Source: Candidatus Kapaibacterium sp. (GTDB lineage: Bacteria > Bacteroidota > Ignavibacteria > Kapaibacteriales > UBA2268). Taken from it: DNA of 64,000 bases. Every line of letters starts with the position of its first letter. Position 1 is the first letter of the stretch. Under the pieces are notes generated by a model. It had not been told where the DNA came from. It saw nothing but the letters and a program-made list of their open reading frames with translations, and did not search any database. Shown here in pieces: positions 29,051-55,778 of the stretch. Where the stretch lies: the NCBI GenBank assembly GCA_963665665.1, contig OY762428.1, positions 1,952,001 through 2,016,000 on the forward strand. The letters run 5' to 3'. The position numbers were made by a program, and so were the translations under genes.

Positions 29051-30760
29051 ATGGCAGACAACAACAAAACTGAAAATGAAGAAAATGCTAACAAGCCTTC
29101 CAACTTTATCAAGTCGATAATCAGGGAAGACCTTAAAAATAATAAAAATGATGGCAGGGTGCACACTCGTTTCCCACCGGAACCAAACGGCTACCTGCAT
29201 ATTGGCCATGCCAAATCCATCTGCCTGAACTTTGGGCTGGCAAATGAGTTCGGCGGCAAAACCAACCTCAGGTTCGACGATACCAACCCGAGCAAGGAAG
29301 AAACCGAATACGTAGAATCGATAATGGAAGACGTACACTGGCTGGGATTCGACTGGGAAGACCGCATGTTCTACGCTTCGGATTATTTCGATAAACTTCA
29401 CGCTTATGCTATCCAGCTTATCAAACTTGGCAAAGCGTTCGTATGCGACCTGAATGCCGAGGAAATTCGCGCGCACAGGGGCACGCTAAAGGAACCCGGC
29501 CAGGAAAGTCCCTACCGCAACAGAAGCATCGATGAAAACCTTGATTTATTCGAAAGAATGACAAAAGGCGAATTCCCGGACGGAACCAAAGTACTCAGGG
29601 CAAAAATTGATATGGCCTCGCCAAACCTGAATATGCGCGACCCCGTTATTTACAGGATAATGCACCGCGAACACCACAGGACAGGCGATAAATGGTGCGT
29701 TTACCCGATGTACGACTGGGCGCACGGACTCAGCGATTCTATTGAGGGGATAACACACTCAGTTTGTACTCTTGAGTTTGAAGACCACAGGCCGCTTTAT
29801 GACTGGTGCTTAGAGCAGCTTGGTGTTTTCCATCCACAGCAGATTGAGTTTGCAAGGCTGAACCTAAGCAACACAATAATGAGCAAAAGAAAGCTGCTCC
29901 AGCTTGTTGAAGAAGATATCGTCAGCGGTTGGGACGACCCGAGAATGCCCACAATTTCCGGCTTGCGGCGCAGGGGTTTTACACCCGAATCTATCAGAGA
30001 TTTTGCCGAGAGAATAGGCGTAGCAAAAAAAGACAGCCTTGTTGATTACGCCCTGCTGGAATACTGCGTCCGTGAGGACCTGAATAAGCGCGCACAGAGG
30101 GTAATGGCCGTTCTCAATCCTGTGAAAGTCATCATTGACAACTATCCCGACGATATTGAGGACGAGCTTGATGCCATTAATAATCCTGAAGACGAATCAA
30201 TGGGTAAAAGGAAGGTTCCTTTCTCGAAAGAAATATATATTGAACGAGACGACTTCATGGAAGATCCGCCCAGAAAATTTTTCAGGCTGGCTCCGGGCCG
30301 CGAGGTAAGGTTGCGCTATGCATACCTTGTAACCTGCACCGACGTTGTGAAGGATGAAAACGGTGAAGTAAAAGAAATTCACTGCACTTACGATCCCGAA
30401 TCGCGCGGCGGCAACGCCCCCGACGGAAGAAGAGTGAAGGGCACTATCCACTGGGTATCGGCAAAGCACGGAATCGATGCCGAAGTAAGGCTTTACGAAC
30501 ACCTGCTAACACTGGAAGACCCCGGCGACGCCGAGGAAGGCAAGTCGTTCATGGATTATATTAATACGGACTCCATGCAGACGATCAATGCCAAAGTAGA
30601 GCCTTTCATGCAGGGCAAAGAAGCGGGCTTCCGCTGCCAGTTCGAGCGCAAGGGCTATTTCTGCGTTGATAAGGATAGTACAAATGACAAACTGGTTATT
30701 AACAGGACAACGGGCCTGAGAGATTCCTGGGCAAAGATGCAGCAGAAAAAGAAAAAATAA
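29051..30760 (+). CDS. glnS: Glutamine--tRNA ligase
   Basis: [20 protein letters not shown] and KGTIHWVS motifs. Confidence 0.98.
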
Positions 30761-30785
30761 TTAAAAATACAAAATATATTAGAAT

Positions 30786-30814
30786 ACATCCGATGACTTA
30801 AAGTCATCGGATGT
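30786..30814. repeat. REP-like palindrome family A, copy 3 (glnS terminator)
   Basis: acatccgatgactt-a-aagtcatcggatgt followed by a T-tract. Confidence 0.8.
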
Positions 30815-30860
30815 TTTTTTATAAAGTCCTGATAAGTAATATAGTTATAAAATCATAAAT

Positions 30861-30925
30861 ACTTGTGAAAAATAATTATGATTATTTGTTTTTTTCTTGC
30901 TTTTTCAATTTCTTTTATTTAAGTT
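30861..30925 (+). promoter_or_regulatory. Conserved promoter of module 1: TGTGA element + TTGCTT-N17-TAAGTT
   Basis: Same layout at 42244-42304 and 52609-52671 (minus strand). Confidence 0.65.
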
Positions 30926-30958
30926 CATGTCAGATCATATTAAGTGTATTTTATAACA

Positions 30959-31219
30959 GAGCCAATGCTTTTATTAAGCCAAAATTATTGGAGGTTGAGA
31001 TGAACAGAAGCCCGTAGCAGAATATTATCCCCATAACAGCAATAATAAAAAGGCCGGGGAAAGCCCCGACCCCACATTGACTCTACGTTCCCACCGAAAA
31101 GGAATATTATAGAGGACAATGTGCCATATTTTTCAGACGCTCTTGCGTTTGCTGTATTGCGTTGCAGTAAATGCAATGAAATTTTCAAAAAATGTAAAAA
31201 TAACAAAATAGTGTGATAT
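30959..31219 (+). ncRNA. Putative structured 5' leader RNA with 5-codon uORF (MNRSP, 31000-31017)
   Basis: Near-identical to the reverse complement of 52253-52506; three predicted hairpins. Confidence 0.5.
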
Positions 31220-31840
31220 ATGAAAAAGACAATATTTTTAATATTTGCAGTATTAGTGCTTTCGTTTAGTTTAAGCCAAAATGCTGAAGCAGGTTGTTCT
31301 CCTGGATGGGATGAGTATTCAGTATCCGGAACATATTACCACAATGGTACATTGTGCAATTATACTGCTTATTACTGCGTTTTTGTCGATGCTATGGGAA
31401 TGATAAATTCTTATATTGACAGGATTTCTATTGATTACGCATGTATTGATGTTTTTACGGAAGATGGATTTTGGATGAATGTTGAGAATGAAGTTATAAA
31501 TCACTTAATAGAAAATGGTAGTTTCTCTCAATGCCCATTGTCTTCATACAATGTATCAATAAAAAGAAGTCAATGTTGGAAAGTAATAAATATACCCTGC
31601 CAAGGAATCTACGAAATTGTAAATTGCGGTTATGTTGGTGCATGCCAGTATCTATATAAAGTATGTACTGACTATACCCAAAATCCACCGGAAAATCAGT
31701 GGGAAATTGTTTCCAGACAAGCGATCGGAACAGCTGATTGTAACGATCAGGGATTGCCGGACTTACCCCCAGACGGAAAAACAAAAGAAGATGAATGGGA
31801 AACAGATTGTTTTCTGATTGGATGTTTTAATTGTAATTAA
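31220..31840 (+). CDS. Secreted cysteine-rich protein (14 Cys), unknown function
   Basis: Sec signal MKKTIFLIFAVLVLSFSLSQNAEA; no T9SS CTD; signal peptide shared with 51608-52252. Confidence 0.8.
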   Translation: MKKTIFLIFAVLVLSFSLSQNAEAGCSPGWDEYSVSGTYYHNGTLCNYTAYYCVFVDAMGMINSYIDRISIDYACIDVFTEDGFWMNVENEVINHLIENGSFSQCPLSSYNVSIKRSQCWKVINIPCQGIYEIVNCGYVGACQYLYKVCTDYTQNPPENQWEIVSRQAIGTADCNDQGLPDLPPDGKTKEDEWETDCFLIGCFNCN

Positions 31841-31896: not shown

Positions 31897-34119
31897 ATGT
31901 TGAAATATTTATTATTTATTTTTTTTCCGATAATTGCTTTCTCTAACGAACTAAATTTCGACTATAAAAGATTGACCATTGATTATTCGGGAATTGCTTC
32001 CAATGACAAAGCGGCTTTATTCTATGGCAATGCAGACTTTATAACGAAGTTTGTATTTGCAGATAATGAATGGGAAAATATTTATTTGAATACAGGAATA
32101 GATAGAATTTCAAGTATCAGAAACGACGATGAAGGTTTTTTCGGCGTGTTTAACAAACAAAATGTTTTTCGGCTTGACTCCGATGGCTGTTTAGTAGAAA
32201 TACAGGAAATTACAGGCGATTCCTTGCTTGTATTGAAAGATATACAAAAGTTTGAAAATAATTATTATATACTAAGCGATAAAAAAATCATCGTCTTAAA
32301 TTCAGATCTTCATTTTGAAAATGAAATAACGTTTAACGGGAATATTGGTGTCACTGAGTTTATAATATTTAACAACCAGTTGATTGTAGGCACCGAAAAT
32401 GCCCGGCTGATATTATACAATCTTCCATCCCTAAATGATAATAATATTCTTAATCTTTATGAATTAGGGCTTTGCGATCCGGATGTCAAAATCAGCAGTT
32501 TTAAAAAATCATCAGGCCTTTTTTATTTTATTGACGGAACTAAAATATACTCTACTGAAGATTTTTCTGATTTTATTGCCCACGAAACAAAAAATCTATT
32601 CTACGAAGTTTGCGACGGAAATATTTTTACAATGGCTATCGGAGGAAACAGATTAAACAGGTTGCTTTTTTATGGTTATACCGAACAAGGGCCGTATTCC
32701 ATAAGCACTGGTATTTTAGACAGATATACAGGTATGCTCTATACGGTTTGTTTCAATTTTATTGATAAAAGTCAATTATTTGTTGTTGGTAATGACAATT
32801 TTATTTCTCGTTCAACAGACGGGGGAATACATTGGGAAGTACAATCCTATTATACCTTGGGAAACTTTAGTTTTTCTTTAAACGATAAATTTGCTTTCCA
32901 GATAGAAAAAAATGCGCTTTTTTTTAAAACAACCAACGGCGGAATTACCTGGCTGACCCAACTTGCGAATAGCTATTCATTTGATAATTTCAACGGAGAT
33001 TACGCTTATCACTTTTCTGAAGACGGCAGGGGTGTAATTTTCAGGTCTCATACCCAGGGCAGCAGCCCCCAGGCTTTAATAACAACAGACAGCGGCAATA
33101 CTTATAAAGCAGTTAGAATTGATTCGATTAGATCTTACGGATTTATCGGTAGTTCAGCGCCATTAATCAGAAATAATAGCGAGTATGAACTGTTTTACCC
33201 TGCGATGTTTGGAACAACATATAAATATACTCTGCATTTTACGCTTGATTTGGATCTAAATTGCAAAAGGAAGGAACTTCTTGATTCTATTCAGATATTT
33301 CAAATTTTGAAACGTAAACAAGGCTGGATTGCCCTGTCGCAAAATTATAAAAGCTCCTCCGGAGAAAATAATGTTTACCAATTGCTATGGGCGGAGAAAC
33401 TCGGAATTGATTGGGAGGTTCTTGCAACGATGAATGTTAAAGATACAATTTTACAGGGAATGACAATCATTGACGACAACGCATATCTTAACGGAATTGT
33501 TTGGGATGAACCGGAAGATATAAATATTTATAAAATTTGTTATATAGTTAATCTGAATTCCTACGAATATAAATTGATAAGAAGTGATAATCGAGGATAT
33601 TATAATAGTTTCATCAAATTAAATGATAATATCGTTACCGGAATAAAAGAAGGTTTTTTATATAACGATGATATAAATAATAATCCATATAAATGGGAAG
33701 TTGATTCAATTCCTGATTGTTCTATTACGTGGCTATCAACTTTATTTCAAAATCAATGTTTTGCAATAACAGCCGGAGCCCTTAAAAAATTCACATTCTA
33801 CGAAGATACACCAGTAGAAGAACCAGGGGCAGAAGTAATAAAAATGTACAACTATCCTCCATATCCACAACCTGCAAACAACCATGTTAGTACGGAAATA
33901 TACTGGGATAGCAGGTACGATATGCAAAACGCCGCAATAACAGTACACGACTACACGGGCAAAACAATCAGCAAACCCGGCGAGATAAGCGTAAACAAGA
34001 TGAATGTATATCACGGCGAAATAATCTGGGACTGCTCCTCAGTCTCATCAGGAGTGTATTTTATTAATATCCGTCTTGGCGGCACAACAAGGACTGTGCC
34101 GGTTGTTGTGGGAAGGTAG
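31897..34119 (+). CDS. BNR/Asp-box beta-propeller protein with T9SS CTD
   Basis: Signal peptide; RSTDGGIHW, KTTNGGITW and TTDSGNTY motifs; CTD PPYPQPA...SSGVYFINI. Confidence 0.8.
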   Translation: MLKYLLFIFFPIIAFSNELNFDYKRLTIDYSGIASNDKAALFYGNADFITKFVFADNEWENIYLNTGIDRISSIRNDDEGFFGVFNKQNVFRLDSDGCLVEIQEITGDSLLVLKDIQKFENNYYILSDKKIIVLNSDLHFENEITFNGNIGVTEFIIFNNQLIVGTENARLILYNLPSLNDNNILNLYELGLCDPDVKISSFKKSSGLFYFIDGTKIYSTEDFSDFIAHETKNLFYEVCDGNIFTMAIGGNRLNRLLFYGYTEQGPYSISTGILDRYTGMLYTVCFNFIDKSQLFVVGNDNFISRSTDGGIHWEVQSYYTLGNFSFSLNDKFAFQIEKNALFFKTTNGGITWLTQLANSYSFDNFNGDYAYHFSEDGRGVIFRSHTQGSSPQALITTDSGNTYKAVRIDSIRSYGFIGSSAPLIRNNSEYELFYPAMFGTTYKYTLHFTLDLDLNCKRKELLDSIQIFQILKRKQGWIALSQNYKSSSGENNVYQLLWAEKLGIDWEVLATMNVKDTILQGMTIIDDNAYLNGIVWDEPEDINIYKICYIVNLNSYEYKLIRSDNRGYYNSFIKLNDNIVTGIKEGFLYNDDINNNPYKWEVDSIPDCSITWLSTLFQNQCFAITAGALKKFTFYEDTPVEEPGAEVIKMYNYPPYPQPANNHVSTEIYWDSRYDMQNAAITVHDYTGKTISKPGEISVNKMNVYHGEIIWDCSSVSSGVYFINIRLGGTTRTVPVVVGR

Positions 34120-49069: not shown

Positions 49070-51517
49070 CTACTTCTCCACCACTATCGGAATACTGTCC
49101 GTGATGCCGTTGTGACGGACGAGTATGAAATAAATGCCCGAGGGTACTGCCGAGCAGTTCCAGATGAATTCAGCCGAGGCTTTGTTTAGGTGGTTGACTT
49201 TAATATTTTCTTTTCCCTGAACTTTCTCGCCGGATAGATCGTAAACGCCCATAATTGATTCTTCAAGATCGAAGCTCATATCGTAGGATATCAGGGTTTT
49301 TATCAGGTTGCGGCCCGGCAAGGGATATGGATTCCCTGCATAGAAATGATTAGTGTAGTAAAGCTTTTCGGCTTGTATTTCAACCCCGACCGGGGCGTGT
49401 TCTTCTGTCATCATGCGGTAGTAGTTGAAGGGGCGCAGGCTGTCACTTAGCCCGACGAGAGACACATTGCCCTTGCATATAACGGAAGAAAATGTCGGGC
49501 GGCCATAATCCCAAGGGGCGTCCTCCCATTTCGTCAGGTCGTTTCGGTCAGTATTTTCAAGGAAAAGCTCCTCGCCGAGAATGTAGAACTTCCCGCTAAG
49601 TTCCATAAAGAAAATGCTGTCCAGCTCAGCGTTTTCGTAAAGATTATCGAATGTATTGCGTTTCCTGTCGTACATCAGTATTCGCGCGGGATATGTAGCT
49701 GCAAAGAAAACAGAATCCTTGTTCAGTTCGTATATCTGCTTAACGGCTAACGAATCCTCGATTTTGCAAATAGATGTTTTTGTTTTGCCGCTGTCATTAG
49801 TTTCAAAAACCTCGAAACTCGTAAAATTATGATACCTGTCTTCCTTTACCGAGCAAAACATAAGGAAATTCTCAAATTCTTCAGCCAGAATATGATGAAC
49901 ATAGAATAGAGAATCATAAGTTATATACCTGAAATTTTCAAAATTTTTATCAGTAAAGTAAAACATTGTGCCTGATTTTTCATATGAGTCTGTACAAATA
50001 AACATATAATTATTATTTATTTCAATAACATTGCTACCTTTTGCAAGTTTGTTTGAATTGCTGGAATAGAAATTATTTAATGAAAGTAATTTAAAAGTAC
50101 GTCCGGCATCCTGTGTAATTGCTATATTATTTTTATCTGTATCAACAACTTTTTCAAACCCAATAAAACCACTACCATCACTGCTAAAGTGCTTTACAAT
50201 CGGACCTAAATTCCATGATAGTAAACTATTGCTGGTATCTGACAAATAAGTAGGCTTAAATGAATTGCCATAATTGTAGCTGCTGTTTATCTCATTATAA
50301 TTTGATTTCGAATATCCACTTCCAAAATTAATATCATTATAAAATATATAAACAGAATCATTAATAATTTTTTCAGGAACTCCCGATAAAAAGGACAAAA
50401 GAGACCAGTTAGCACCTTTATCTGCCGAAATCATAAGCGAACGACTCATACCTGCTTTTACATATATTCCATTCTTTAATATATTACACTTTTTTGTAAA
50501 CAAGCCTGACGAAAGATCGTAACAACCTTTGTTTTCTGCTCCAATTGTTTGGTATTTATTTATATAATGCTTATTGATTAATTTGAAAGTGTCTTTAGGT
50601 ATTTCGCTATATATTTTTATCAGCATATTTGTTGATCCTTGGTCGTTGCCTTCCAGACTTACTCCATATAGATCTTCGTTATCAGTAAAATAAGTATTGT
50701 CATTAATCCAACGCTTAAGATATATCAATGAATCACTTCGATTCATGAACAGACTGTCCTGGAAAAAGAAATTCCAATTATTGTAATCATCGCTCATTCT
50801 GTATAAATTGCCTCCGATATTAAATATATTTTCATCCTTTATTTTATAAATATCATTCAGATTATAATATTCCGGATTGGTGGTATATACTTTCCCCTTC
50901 ATATTTATCATTTTGAAATTCTCAAGCTCTGATGTTAGTTTTGCAAAACCGTTGTTTTCTGATATAAGGTCTATTAGCAAATCGTTTTTTAATAAAAATA
51001 TATTCGAAACCGAATAATTTTCATAATATACTTTGGGCTTGTAATAGAATGAATCAATTTTGCTCTCAATTATTACGTTTTCAAAATGATTAATCAAATT
51101 CATATCTTTATCATAACGCAGAATACTTTTCAAACTTCTAACATAAACAAAATTGTCAGATATAATAATATTTATTAGTCGGTTTGAAGTATCAATCAAA
51201 ACATTAAACTGTTCCCAATTTAAGCCATTATTAACCGATCTGATAACATTACCGTAATTTACTACTCCCCACAAGGTATCATTATAATTAACAATTTTAT
51301 TAATCTGCCCTCTCTGAGCGATACATTTTTGCCTCCAGCTTTGCCCTTTATCGGTTGAAAGCAGGTAAGCCCCGTTAGTCCCGTAAGAAATAATGTTATC
51401 CCCCGCTCCAACGGCCCCGAGATAATGAATTTTCAGCGGCATCAGGTTGAAAGTTTCGGAATATGAATAAGTAAAGCAATTGAAAGTAATGATTAAAATA
51501 ATAGAAAAATATTTCAT
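49070..51517 (-). CDS. BNR/Asp-box beta-propeller protein with T9SS CTD (more distant paralog)
   Basis: STDKGQSW, SVNNGLNW and SADKGANW motifs; CTD NPYPLPG...VPSGIYFILV. Confidence 0.8.
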   Translation of the reverse strand: MKYFSIILIITFNCFTYSYSETFNLMPLKIHYLGAVGAGDNIISYGTNGAYLLSTDKGQSWRQKCIAQRGQINKIVNYNDTLWGVVNYGNVIRSVNNGLNWEQFNVLIDTSNRLINIIISDNFVYVRSLKSILRYDKDMNLINHFENVIIESKIDSFYYKPKVYYENYSVSNIFLLKNDLLIDLISENNGFAKLTSELENFKMINMKGKVYTTNPEYYNLNDIYKIKDENIFNIGGNLYRMSDDYNNWNFFFQDSLFMNRSDSLIYLKRWINDNTYFTDNEDLYGVSLEGNDQGSTNMLIKIYSEIPKDTFKLINKHYINKYQTIGAENKGCYDLSSGLFTKKCNILKNGIYVKAGMSRSLMISADKGANWSLLSFLSGVPEKIINDSVYIFYNDINFGSGYSKSNYNEINSSYNYGNSFKPTYLSDTSNSLLSWNLGPIVKHFSSDGSGFIGFEKVVDTDKNNIAITQDAGRTFKLLSLNNFYSSNSNKLAKGSNVIEINNNYMFICTDSYEKSGTMFYFTDKNFENFRYITYDSLFYVHHILAEEFENFLMFCSVKEDRYHNFTSFEVFETNDSGKTKTSICKIEDSLAVKQIYELNKDSVFFAATYPARILMYDRKRNTFDNLYENAELDSIFFMELSGKFYILGEELFLENTDRNDLTKWEDAPWDYGRPTFSSVICKGNVSLVGLSDSLRPFNYYRMMTEEHAPVGVEIQAEKLYYTNHFYAGNPYPLPGRNLIKTLISYDMSFDLEESIMGVYDLSGEKVQGKENIKVNHLNKASAEFIWNCSAVPSGIYFILVRHNGITDSIPIVVEK

Positions 51518-51607: not shown

Positions 51608-52252
51608 TTATTCACAATGACTTATGACACCACGTACTTTTGAACATAAGATAGACCATGGTTTTGAACTGTATTCATATCCAGGAACTCCATCTCCATA
51701 TGGTTCTTTTACACATTCACCATTACCAGTTAAATAAGTATAATTCCAAGTTATAACGGGATGTGGCACACAATCTGGATCAGTATCGCAATCAGGGGTG
51801 CAATTACACATACATATTGTTAAATTTAAAGTACACCTTAAGTCACATGTTTCGCTTCTTGTATAATTCAAATACGTACCATTCCAAAATATGTCATAAC
51901 AAACGGGATCAGTAATTTCCAGAGTTAGTGAACCCTGATCGCATGGTTGCAACCCACAAAAATCGCCATGATTGTTATAAATGTAATTATACGTCGCATC
52001 CCAAATGGCATCTTCATATCCTGGACATACGTTGTTAACCGCCAAAATTTCAACTTTTGTAAAGAAATTGCCTGTTGGGCTACATGTGTAGCAAACAACT
52101 ACTTCTGCATCAGGACAACCAGGGACAAAATCTCCCACTGGTAAAGTTGTACAAATCCCAGGTGTAAGACAAGCCGCGCATGGATCCTGTGCCTGGCTTA
52201 AACTAAACGAAAATACTAATACTGCTATTACTAAAAATATTGTCTTTTTCAT
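51608..52252 (-). CDS. Secreted cysteine-rich protein (20 Cys), unknown function
   Basis: Signal MKKTIFLVIAVLVFSFSLSQA; Cys spacing partly alignable with 31220-31840. Confidence 0.8.
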   Translation of the reverse strand: MKKTIFLVIAVLVFSFSLSQAQDPCAACLTPGICTTLPVGDFVPGCPDAEVVVCYTCSPTGNFFTKVEILAVNNVCPGYEDAIWDATYNYIYNNHGDFCGLQPCDQGSLTLEITDPVCYDIFWNGTYLNYTRSETCDLRCTLNLTICMCNCTPDCDTDPDCVPHPVITWNYTYLTGNGECVKEPYGDGVPGYEYSSKPWSILCSKVRGVISHCE

Positions 52253-52483
52253 ATATCACACTATTTTGTTATTTTTACATTTTTTGAAAATTTCATTGCA
52301 TTTACTGCAAAGCAATACAGCAAACGTAAGAGCGTCTGAAAAACAAGGCACATTGTCCTCTAATATTCCTTTGCTTGGACGTAGAGTCAATGTGGGGTCG
52401 GGGCTTTCCCCGGCCTTTTTATTATTGCTGTCATGGGGATAATTTTTGTTACGGGCTTCTGTTCATCTCAACCTCCAATAATA
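52253..52483 (-). ncRNA. Putative structured 5' leader, copy 2 (uORF MNRSP at 52449-52466)
   Basis: Reverse complement near-identical to about 30980-31219. Confidence 0.5.
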
Positions 52484-52574
52484 TTGGCTTAATAAAAGCA
52501 TTGGCTTAATAAAAGCATTGGCTTAATAAAAGCATTGGCTTAATAAAAGCATTGGCTTAATAAAAGCATTGGCT
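52484..52574. repeat. 17-bp tandem repeat TTGGCTTAATAAAAGCA x5 plus a partial unit
   Basis: Perfect units start at 52484, 52501, 52518, 52535 and 52552; a single unit occurs at the homologous site near 30960-30982. Confidence 0.95.
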
Positions 52575-52608
52575 CCACTGTTTTCAATTTGAAATATAAC
52601 TTTGGATA

Positions 52609-52673
52609 AAGTTAATTAAAAGAAAATAAAAAAGCAAGAAAAAAAATCAATAATCTTAATTATTTTTCACAAG
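52609..52673 (-). promoter_or_regulatory. Conserved promoter of module 2: TGTGA element + TTGCTT-N17-TAACTT
   Basis: Homologous to 30861-30925. Confidence 0.65.
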
Positions 52674-52720
52674 TATTTCTATTTTTATAACTATATTACT
52701 TGTCAGGATATTATAAAAAA

Positions 52721-52741
52721 ACATCCGATGACTTTAAGTCA
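52721..52741. repeat. REP-like palindrome family A, copy 6 (truncated)
   Basis: acatccgatgactttaagtca; the outer part of one arm is missing. Confidence 0.7.
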
Positions 52742-53069: not shown

Positions 53070-54416
53070 CTATTTTATAATTATCATTTTCTTGCTGGCA
53101 GCAATTCTGCCGTTTATCTCTATTGCATATACATATACTCCTGTAGGAAATTCCCCGGCGTCAATAGTAATGGCGCAGGGCCTGCCAAAACATGCTTCGG
53201 TTTCTTTTATTATACTTTCGCCCCTTTCGTCGCTGATAATCAACCGGACGCTGCCGCTGTAATTATCGGGAATATAATACATTATCTCGGTTTCATCCGA
53301 AAAGGGGTTGGGGTTGTTCTGGTAAAGGAGGATATCGCTGCCGTTCATTTCCTCTCCTTCTATTCCCATTACTTCGTCAACTATACAATCGGTTAGTTCG
53401 TGGCGAAAATACCTGTTTGTCCAGAATTTCATTGACAGGATGGCATAATTATTATTAAAAATCGGAACATAAGGTTCCATATCTCCCGGTATAATCTTTT
53501 GCCATGTAAATCCCTGGTCTGTTGATAAAAATAATCCAGCCGATGAGTTGATATTATTAACTAAAGCGCTTGCATATAAATTTTTATTGCAACTCGAAAA
53601 TTGATTCAAACAAGTATAATAGTGTTTGCCTTCAATAACACCATTATTGAATTCATGAATCTTTTCCCAGCTCATGCCATTATTTATAGTGGAAAACAGG
53701 TAGGGTCCAATCGATAAAAAAACTTTGTTTTCTATGTTTGTAATTCCGCGTTGAAGATAATGCCTATAAGTATTAAACACATTTCTAATCTCTTGATTTG
53801 TTATAATTTTCCAGTCAAGGCCGTTATATGAAAACAATATTTCCCTTGTTGTAAGTGCGAATAATCCCTTGCCCAGTGCTCCAAAGCCTTTGTTCGTAGC
53901 TAATATCTCGTCCGAATTTCCGGCATTGTTTCCGTAATCTCGGAAAGTCCAGGTAGTTCCGCCATCTGCGGAATAATAATAACCAATATATTTTTCTCGC
54001 AACATATATAATGTATCATTTTGCGCGGTAATCTGCTTTATTCTAAAAAAATAGCAATCCTCGTTATTATCATCTTTCAATACAATTCTTTCGAAAGTAT
54101 TACCCTTATTTTTAGAAACAAAACATCTTCCGCTCGTTGTCTGAACTATCAGGCTTTCGTTAATAAATTGCAAATATTCAAGAGATTTATCATTATATTC
54201 ATTTTTAAATACCAAAAACTGCTCCCATGATTCGCCATTATCAGGGGAATAATATATTGTACTATCCATCGCAATATAAAGAGTATCCGAATAGCTAGCC
54301 ATATTGTAATATAATGGGAATTTCGGAAAATTTAAAGAAAGGTCTTCCCATTCACCGTAAGAATATGAAAACACTGATAATAGGAATATTAGGCTTAATG
54401 TTAATTGCTTTTTCAT
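53070..54416 (-). CDS. BNR/Asp-box T9SS cargo protein, tandem array member
   Basis: Signal peptide; SPDNGESW, SADGGTTW and STDQGFTW motifs; CTD LYQNNPNPF...PTGVYVY...KKMIIIK. Confidence 0.85.
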   Translation of the reverse strand: MKKQLTLSLIFLLSVFSYSYGEWEDLSLNFPKFPLYYNMASYSDTLYIAMDSTIYYSPDNGESWEQFLVFKNEYNDKSLEYLQFINESLIVQTTSGRCFVSKNKGNTFERIVLKDDNNEDCYFFRIKQITAQNDTLYMLREKYIGYYYSADGGTTWTFRDYGNNAGNSDEILATNKGFGALGKGLFALTTREILFSYNGLDWKIITNQEIRNVFNTYRHYLQRGITNIENKVFLSIGPYLFSTINNGMSWEKIHEFNNGVIEGKHYYTCLNQFSSCNKNLYASALVNNINSSAGLFLSTDQGFTWQKIIPGDMEPYVPIFNNNYAILSMKFWTNRYFRHELTDCIVDEVMGIEGEEMNGSDILLYQNNPNPFSDETEIMYYIPDNYSGSVRLIISDERGESIIKETEACFGRPCAITIDAGEFPTGVYVYAIEINGRIAASKKMIIIK

Positions 54417-54428
54417 TGGATTGCCTTT

Positions 54429-55778
54429 CTATTTAATAATTATCATTTTTTTACTCGCGGCTATTCTGCCGTTTATCTCTATTGCATATACATAAACGCC
54501 TGTAGGAAATTCCCCGGCGTCAATAGTTATAGCGCAGGGCCTGCCAAAGCATGCTTCGGTTTCTTTTATTATACTTTCGCCCCTTTCATTGCTGATAATC
54601 AACCGGACGCTTCCGCTGTAATTATCGGGAATATAATACATTATCTCGGTTTCATCCGAAAAGGGGTTGGGGTTGTTCTGGTAAAGGAGGATATCGCTGC
54701 CGTTCATTTCCTCCCCTTCTATTCCCATTACTTCGTCAACTATACAGTCGGTAAGTTCATAGCGGTAATATCTATTTGTCCATAATCCCATTGCCAAGAT
54801 TGCATAATTGTTACAAAAAATCGGGACAGAAGGGTCCATTTCTTCCGGTATAATTTTCTGCCAGGTAAATCCTTGGTCTGACGAAGAGTAAATTCCGACG
54901 GAATTATGAAAAGTATTAATGCACGCCTTAGCATATAACACATCATTGCAACTTGAAAATTCAGTCAAAATTGTGTCATACTGTATGCCTTCAATTACAG
55001 GCGATTCGAACTCATGAATCTTTTCCCAGCTCATACCATTATTAATGGTGGAAAACAGGTGGGGTCCTATAGATAAAAAGACTTTGTTTTCAATATTAAT
55101 AATTCCGCGTTGTCTATGATGGCCATAAGTATTTAATAAATTTTTAATCTCTTTGTTAGTTATTATTTTCCAGTCCAGGCCGTTAAATGAAAACAATATT
55201 TCCCGTATTGTAAGCGCAAACAAACCCTTGCCCAGGGTTCCAAAGCCTTTGTTAGTAGCTAATATCTCGTCTGAATTTCCGGCATTTATTTTGTAATCTG
55301 CGAAAGTCCAGGTAGTTCCGCCATCTGCAGAATAATAGTAACCATTATAAACGTCTTCTCTTATAAGATATAAAGTATCATTTTGGCTCACAATACTTTT
55401 TATACTAAAATAATACCAATCCTCGTTATATTCATCTTTCAGAATTATCCTTTCATAAGAATTGCCGATATCTTTTGAAATATAACATCTTCTTTTCGTA
55501 GTTTGGATTATCAGGCTTCCATTTATAAATTGAAAGTATTCAATGAATTTATCATCATATTCATTTTCCAAATTTAAAAAATATAGCCAGGAATTGCCAT
55601 TATCTGAACTGTAATATATTGTATCTTCAATTGCAATATAAAGAGTATCTGAGTAACTTATCATATTATATTCTATAGGGAATTCAGAAAAATTATTAGT
55701 GAGGTCTTCCCATTCGCCGTAAGAATATGAAAACACTGATAATATGAATATAAGGCTTAGGGTTAATTGCTTTTTCAT
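54429..55778 (-). CDS. BNR/Asp-box T9SS cargo protein, tandem array member
   Basis: Same signal peptide and CTD; passenger most similar to 53070-54416. Confidence 0.85.
   Translation of the reverse strand: MKKQLTLSLIFILSVFSYSYGEWEDLTNNFSEFPIEYNMISYSDTLYIAIEDTIYYSSDNGNSWLYFLNLENEYDDKFIEYFQFINGSLIIQTTKRRCYISKDIGNSYERIILKDEYNEDWYYFSIKSIVSQNDTLYLIREDVYNGYYYSADGGTTWTFADYKINAGNSDEILATNKGFGTLGKGLFALTIREILFSFNGLDWKIITNKEIKNLLNTYGHHRQRGIINIENKVFLSIGPHLFSTINNGMSWEKIHEFESPVIEGIQYDTILTEFSSCNDVLYAKACINTFHNSVGIYSSSDQGFTWQKIIPEEMDPSVPIFCNNYAILAMGLWTNRYYRYELTDCIVDEVMGIEGEEMNGSDILLYQNNPNPFSDETEIMYYIPDNYSGSVRLIISNERGESIIKETEACFGRPCAITIDAGEFPTGVYVYAIEINGRIAASKKMIIIK

Follow-up and report, generated by a model that had tools for sequence, protein, structure and literature searches.

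A candidate antisense small RNA opposite the leader of Cys-rich/BNR type IX secretion operons in Candidatus Kapaibacterium sp.

The region considered here lies in a 64,000-nucleotide stretch of the genome of Candidatus Kapaibacterium sp. (a single 5.46-Mb contig of 38.6% G+C); this stretch is referred to below as the window. On its plus strand, a gene for a secreted Cys-rich protein of 206 amino acids with 14 cysteines (31220–31840, copy A) is followed by a gene for a BNR-repeat protein with a type IX secretion C-terminal sorting domain (31897–34119). Promoter, leader, and signal-peptide codons of the Cys-rich gene form a module that occurs in five copies in the genome (A to E, 93–95% identity). 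The second copy reported for this leader is copy B, located at window 52194–52741 on the minus strand, as is its Cys-rich gene (51608–52252). Each copy of the module leads into a gene for a secreted Cys-rich protein of about 200 amino acids (13–21 cysteines, counted in four of the five) and then into one for a BNR-repeat protein of 740–832 amino acids, which bears the type IX C-terminal sorting domain. The Cys-rich proteins have no match in Pfam, and a protein atlas returned only unnamed Bacteroidota clusters. At the 5′ edge of the module lies the terminator hairpin of a glnS-like gene (30786–30814, plus strand). This hairpin is itself a palindromic repeat of about 27–33 nt with near-identical copies at more than 30 genome sites in both orientations, and may be a REP-like or a standardised terminator element.

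Identity between the copies is sharply bounded. In all pairs it amounts to 90–100% between about −450 and +70 (counted from the ATG) and is near random (38–55%) in the gene interior; in copy A, only the signal-peptide codons (31220–31291) belong to the conserved module. Conservation had been described as focused on the leader, and it extends instead over the promoter, the upstream flank, and the whole signal peptide. Within each protein type, identity reaches 90–98% again over the last 300–900 nt of the second (BNR) gene; the final ~300 nt of the copy A gene (window ~33800–34119), for example, are 92–97% identical to those of copy D. These homogenised 3′ ends, a further example being window 49070–49970, encode the type IX sorting domain, and the two-gene cassettes are homogenised at both ends. 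Copies B and D are 97–100% identical upstream and have unrelated gene bodies, and the relationships among leaders (B = D) are at odds with the protein types (A and D versus B, C, and E). The identity between copies is thus a product of gene conversion (concerted evolution) rather than of selection on an RNA fold; the earlier note had itself listed identity due only to recent gene conversion among the findings that would undo its proposal. Two counts of compensatory pairs among the five copies gave 0 of 38 and 0 of 65, and the copies are therefore uninformative on structure. In metagenome contigs, this organism was present at low depth, with no usable information on variants or on joints.

Homogenised ends are also seen elsewhere. 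In the window, two adjacent genes (53070–54416 and 54429–55778) encode paralogous secreted proteins of 448 and 449 amino acids whose N- and C-terminal parts are almost identical and whose middles diverge, another case of concerted evolution. A complete genome from another genus (G114) carries five Cys-rich paralogs (L067–L071) with a common signal peptide and about 330 nt of common upstream sequence, in which a variable-length (AG)n repeat and a GGAGG followed by a 2-codon ORF are found. Homogenised 5′ modules are thus a habit of the family. Many matches to the Cys-rich proteins in draft genomes of the family start less than 300 nt from a contig end, which suggests that the upstream modules are assembly-breaking repeats in other genera too.

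The three hairpins first noted in the leader of copy A were all recovered: a G+C-rich hairpin at 31052–31071 (hairpin 1), a long interrupted stem at 31073–31123, and a G·U-rich stem at 31143–31176. The apical part of the long stem, said to differ between two copies, is hypervariable in the five-copy alignment, and an eye count on that alignment indicates that most substitutions fall outside the stems and are densest in the apical loop. Compared with shuffled sequences, the leader folds with z-scores of −4.0 (plus strand) and −4.3 (minus strand), and none of 200 shuffles was as stable. The first reading had found no fit to the SAM, cobalamin, c-di-GMP, or T-box consensus, and a search with Rfam 15 gave no match in the window at the gathering threshold; the best E-value within 30760–31300 was 0.07 and fell on the upstream terminator.

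On the gene strand, a promoter consisting of a TTGCTT box, a 17-nt spacer, and a −7 box (30897–30927, plus) precedes the Cys-rich/BNR operon. Both rRNA operons of the genome (~2676800–2677260 and 3512800–3513240) have three promoters in tandem ahead of them, each composed of CTTGCA, 17 nt, and TAAnTT; these supplied the consensus for promoters of this organism. The site at 30897–30927 has the same layout and is the sole promoter-like site retained in all five copies, so that a real plus-strand leader probably crosses the region of the hairpins. Transcription would start near 30932, giving a leader predicted to be about 290 nt long here and about 290–400 nt across the copies. Between 30815 and the ATG, no terminator was found on the plus strand. 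The upstream half of the promoter module is common to four stand-alone BNR/type IX paralogs (genome 2547866–2547945, ~2366047–2366089, 1994267–1994306, and 2605447–2605486), with homology stopping right after the TTGCTT box; downstream of it, these genes have a different leader of about 90 nt and an ordinary ribosome-binding site. The shared promoter half suggests that the cassettes and these paralogs form one regulon.

Behind the promoter lies a perfect tandem repeat with a unit of 17 nt and a variable copy number: 1.4 copies in copy A (30960–30982, plus), 5.4 perfect copies in copy B (52483–52574, minus), and, copy B included, 2.4, 2.4, 5.4, and 8.4 copies in the four modules other than A. 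In one of the paralog leaders it lies at L003 1382–1523. The repeat looks slippage-prone and could tune or switch expression. Pairing of the repeat with the leader (−16.2 kcal/mol) was not significant relative to shuffles (mean −13.7, sd 2.6). The repeat is followed by a Shine-Dalgarno sequence (GGAGG, 30990–30994) and a mini-ORF of five codons (MNRSP-stop, 31000–31017) at optimal distance from it. The 16S rRNA tail carries the standard anti-Shine-Dalgarno sequence, and a pattern of GGAGG, 4–8 nt, and ATG is expected only 0.015 times per 300 nt. The mini-ORF ends 202 nt upstream of the main ATG; its stop codon is TAG in two copies (A and C) and TAA in the three others (B, D, and E). Descent of the leader from a decayed alternative leader or from the 5′ ends of paralogs was also considered and rejected: local alignment scores were within the null, so that the resemblance between the start regions of the mini-ORF and paralog H provides no evidence for descent.

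The earlier note had proposed a riboswitch-like or protein-binding leader, which is to say that the hairpins act in the plus-strand mRNA; the mini-ORF might then add translation-dependent control. A structured element and a long gene-strand leader behind a strong promoter, conserved 290–400 nt upstream of the ATG in all five copies, are indeed there, and the plus-strand fold is itself significantly stable. The 14-pair stem at 31143–31176 also speaks for the mRNA: it contains three G·U pairs that become C·A mismatches on the minus strand, making it the only helix that favours the gene strand, though it could be either an mRNA leader hairpin or a DNA inverted repeat. The remainder of the proposal has fared less well. 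Nothing indicates ligand binding, Rfam has no match, and the gene strand has neither a terminator nor a helix sequestering the ribosome-binding site 3′ of a would-be aptamer; the consensus fold leaves the A-rich 45 nt next to the ATG unpaired. The identity of the copies, from which the leader had been proposed, reflects gene conversion and includes no compensatory pair, and hairpin 1 and the long stem favour the other strand, as set out below. On balance, it seems unlikely that the hairpins work as part of the mRNA.

Read on the minus strand, hairpin 1 is an intrinsic terminator of classical form (31039–31073) with a 4-nt loop and a T-rich tail. Its stem of 10 pairs, 7 of them G-C (31073 to 31050), has the properties of intrinsic terminators; on the plus strand, the same hairpin contains a C·A mismatch and lacks a U tail. 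The long stem (31073–31123) would precede this terminator as the long hairpin, H1, of a small RNA. Together, the two elements reach −34.5 kcal/mol (z −6.0, 4 G·U pairs) on the minus strand and −26.8 kcal/mol (z −3.9, 1 G·U pair) on the plus strand. A possible −7 box of the small RNA is located at 31189–31196 (minus) and is invariant in the five copies. Read by eye, it agrees at 7 of 8 positions with TAnnTTTG, the Bacteroidetes −7 box described in PMC7366714. The box is weak: a TTG box at the right distance is missing, and a better-looking site exists in only two of the five copies. All five local units are divergent to and directly beside the first gene of the operon; that of copy B occupies 52350–52430 (plus), opposite the copy-B Cys-rich gene. 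A minus-strand small protein of 73 amino acids running through the terminator was considered and discarded, as loop indels in the five-copy alignment would shift its frame.

The genus is represented by this genome alone. A DNA search of 100 family genomes returned no homolog of the leader. A covariance model built from the five local copies (R1) gave only terminator-like chance matches in 129 family genomes, a metagenome pattern scan gave three chance matches in unrelated G+C-rich DNA, and two pattern scans of genome collections as well as scans of plasmid and phage collections gave none. A word-based protein search found this species' own proteins only and missed the relatives, which were recovered by a six-frame profile search with the five Cys-rich proteins: homologs are present in 31 of 129 other family genomes. 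The same profile also identified three more paralogs in this genome, upstream of which no hairpin-plus-terminator unit was recognisable by eye. Two Cys-rich paralogs other than the five copies, at genome 4886481–4887074 and 2235087–2235680 (both minus), share a leader of about 215 nt that is distinct in sequence; one of the two contains an in-frame TAA and is probably a pseudogene.

Upstream of the homologous genes, the same architecture recurs. At 14 loci in 11 genomes, the strand opposite the gene carries a long hairpin and, immediately after it, a second hairpin that resembles a terminator and ends in a T-rich tail; the unit lies 35–170 nt ahead of the ATG. By eye, 9 of the 14 loci have an exact TAnnTTTG −7 box 5′ of the hairpin on the opposite strand. 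The conserved T-rich tail and the −7 box of these relatives make sense only on that strand, which counts against a role of the hairpins in the mRNA. On the gene strand, 11 of the 14 have a Shine-Dalgarno sequence with a mini-ORF of 5–7 codons just beyond the terminator of the unit, 148–241 nt before the main ATG. This recurrence argues that the gene strand is transcribed and translated there, and so favours the mRNA as the site of action; a clear gene-strand promoter upstream of the mini-ORF was not found in the few relatives inspected by eye. The closest relative is a locus in another genus (G009a), whose mini-ORF likewise ends in RSP-stop, whose 13-nt stretch at the foot of the hairpin is identical to the local one at 12 of 13 positions, and which has the same arrangement of A-run, hairpin, and tail. 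At the G114-type loci of genus g14, the unit was not recognised in a parse of hairpins. Rfam matched nothing on the units of 13 related loci. A pseudoknot seen by eye in relatives, between the loop and a motif after the mini-ORF, was rejected; the opposite-strand fold accounts for the bases concerned as an extended terminator stem.

The relatives also speak on the strand. The opposite strand is more stable by 6–16 kcal/mol at 11 of the 14 loci and the remaining 3 have no strand preference; G·U pairs number 76 on the opposite strand versus 18 on the gene strand, in a test whose hairpins were chosen from opposite-strand folds and which is thus mildly biased towards that strand. Three paralogs from one genome (G057), aligned by sequence alone, have two compensatory pairs as well as three one-sided changes that are kept as G·U on the opposite strand only. 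A covariance model made from these three paralogs (R2) picked up the units of four further genera, each where it was expected and on the expected strand. In the resulting alignment of seven sequences from five genera, 17 of 30 pairs have changed on both sides, and 94.7% of cells pair, compared with 79.1% in shuffles (0 of 500 reach the observed value) and 38–49% with slid partners; the alignment was fitted to the structure of the model and leans towards it. Covariation of gene-strand helices, as a riboswitch-like leader would be expected to have, was not found in the five copies, and in relatives it is the opposite strand that the one-sided changes and the G·U pairs support. The hairpins are real, and most likely they belong to an opposite-strand small RNA and not to a riboswitch-like leader.

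A broader covariance model (R3) detected 20 matches in 9 of the 129 family genomes. Of the 19 that could be tested, 18 lie 34–70 nt from a divergent gene for a Cys-rich secreted protein; the exception adjoins a gene for a secreted protein of 101 amino acids, and one further match is cut by a contig end. The association extends to matches outside the seed (11 of 12 testable ones beside a Cys-rich gene), some of them in genomes without a match to the protein profile. In 112 genomes from ten other families of the order, no match was obtained at E ≤ 0.001. This distribution bears on the possibility that the unit gives rise to nothing but a divergent by-product transcript that is terminated at once, hairpin and terminator insulating the upstream genes and the RNA itself having no regulatory role. 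A clear terminator, the position of the unit against the 5′ end of a gene in every case, and the lack of a good promoter at the local copy would all fit such a by-product. A mere insulator, however, would not need the pairing of the long hairpin, which is kept across genera with 7 of 13 pairs compensated, nor would it be expected to track a single gene family at 18 of 19 testable matches, and a by-product is accordingly an improbable explanation.

The unit might also encode a small RNA that acts in trans and only happens to lie beside the operon, either regulating other targets through the loop of the long hairpin or being co-regulated with the operon. In relatives it has a promoter box and a terminator of its own, and R3 finds it repeatedly within a genome (six times in G057, three times each in G018, G048, and G049); the apical loop, moreover, varies among the local copies. 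The constant divergent position 34–70 nt from the ATG is difficult to reconcile with this, as overlap with the mRNA would be hard to avoid, and no copy-specific complement of the variable loop was found in the copy's own cassette. We regard a purely trans-acting RNA as very unlikely.

How securely the local unit can be joined to that of the relatives is a separate matter. Models built without any sequence of this genome match at window 31038–31122 on the minus strand, and do so in all five copies. The scores are low: 7–13 bits with R2 and 12–17 bits with R3, corresponding to E-values of 0.08–0.9 in 27 kb, and false matches score similarly; a search of the whole local genome with R3 gave no significant match. 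Position and orientation agree, as do the parts: the hairpin and the terminator, a mini-ORF on the far side of the latter, and a neighbouring gene that is homologous. The proposed homology rests on this shared position, orientation, and architecture and not on a significant score.

Alternatively, there may be no RNA function here at all, the module being a homogenised relic kept by gene conversion: a promoter with the fossil of a start codon and its ribosome-binding site, together with a terminator that was captured and palindromes that might be DNA operators. The sharp-edged mosaic, the conflict between the tree of leaders (B = D) and the protein types, the absence of covariation in the copies, and the weak match to the relatives' model all agree with this. 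It does not account for the occurrence of the same architecture with a different sequence at homologous genes in other genera, nor for fold z-scores of −4 to −6 and substitutions that by eye mostly spare the stems and cluster in the apical loop. A relic is assigned a low probability.

The reading that fits best, to which we give about an even chance, is a DonS-like cis-antisense small RNA convergent with a strong operon promoter. The region would then be a convergent control region with two transcripts. On the gene strand, the rRNA-like promoter near 30897–30927 would start the ~290-nt leader with its 17-nt repeat and mini-ORF. The opposite strand would yield a small RNA of about 85–145 nt, with the long stem as its hairpin and hairpin 1 as its terminator; its transcription would begin somewhere between the ATG of the Cys-rich gene and the long stem and stop shortly before the mini-ORF is reached. 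This transcript would damp the Cys-rich/BNR type IX operon, either by forming a duplex with the leader or through collision of polymerases. In relatives, a gene promoter of its own would not fit into the 34–70 nt that separate the unit from the ATG, and overlap of the two transcripts is therefore likely. For the local copy, we infer that it is transcribed, where its transcript starts, that this is antisense to a real mRNA leader, and in which direction it acts. More speculatively, the hypervariable apical loop might set the specificity of each copy.

DonS (Cao et al. 2016) is described in PMC7366714 as a family of RNAs of 78–128 nt that are divergent to susC genes and lower their expression. 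The unit resembles DonS as a candidate RNA of about 80–130 nt divergent to the first gene of a secreted- or surface-protein operon, with several copies per genome, in an organism with Bacteroidetes-type promoters; a promoter of its own is putative here. Several differences exist nevertheless. The unit accompanies orphan Cys-rich and BNR/type IX operons rather than susC, is unrelated to DonS in sequence or in Rfam, and has a Shine-Dalgarno-led mini-ORF flanking its terminator; its local copies, in addition, are embedded in a gene-converted module with a variable tandem repeat. By analogy, it may work like DonS without being a member of that family. In plasmids under antisense control, specificity between related systems is set by the sequence of the loop, which would fit the hypervariable loop seen here. 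Plasmid R1 offers another comparison (CopA/CopT-tap-repA): according to PMC12361487, its antisense RNA, which is structured and has a terminator, pairs with an mRNA leader containing a short upstream ORF, and blocks translation of a leader peptide that is translationally coupled to repA. At the Kapaibacterium locus, in contrast, the mini-ORF (31000–31017) lies outside the region complementary to the antisense RNA (31039–31123 or further) and about 200 nt before the ATG; coupling of the R1 type is therefore not expected, and the mechanism of R1 does not apply.

The module as a whole recalls another type of system. The vlp, vsp, and vlhA families of Mycoplasma consist of paralogs with near-identical promoters, 5′ untranslated regions, and signal peptides, divergent mature parts, and upstream repeats that vary. 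Surface-lipoprotein families of Mycoplasma switch by repeat slippage or by site-specific inversion; to our knowledge, no antisense RNA is part of the picture in vlp, vsp, or vlhA. The Cys-rich modules, too, combine a common promoter, leader, and signal peptide with divergent bodies and a variable repeat. It is conceivable, although highly unlikely, that each of the five cassettes is gated by its own antisense RNA, made copy-specific by the hypervariable hairpin loop much as in plasmid incompatibility, and that strong convergent promoters together with the slippage-prone 17-nt repeat let them switch on and off independently; the ensemble would then be an antigenic-variation-like generator of diversity for secreted type IX cargo in a free-living member of the Bacteroidota group, kept by gene conversion of the shared ends.

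Near-identity of paralogous leaders, as this case cautions, can be due purely to gene conversion, and it was the protein-anchored homologs in other genera that were informative. In those relatives, the candidate small RNA is backed by covariation and by a near-perfect tie to Cys-rich/BNR type IX operons. If the reading is correct, it would constitute a new, family-wide small RNA absent from Rfam. It would extend antisense control of the DonS type beyond polysaccharide utilisation loci and gut Bacteroides, and would provide a handle on the regulation and the function of a Cys-rich protein family of no known role.
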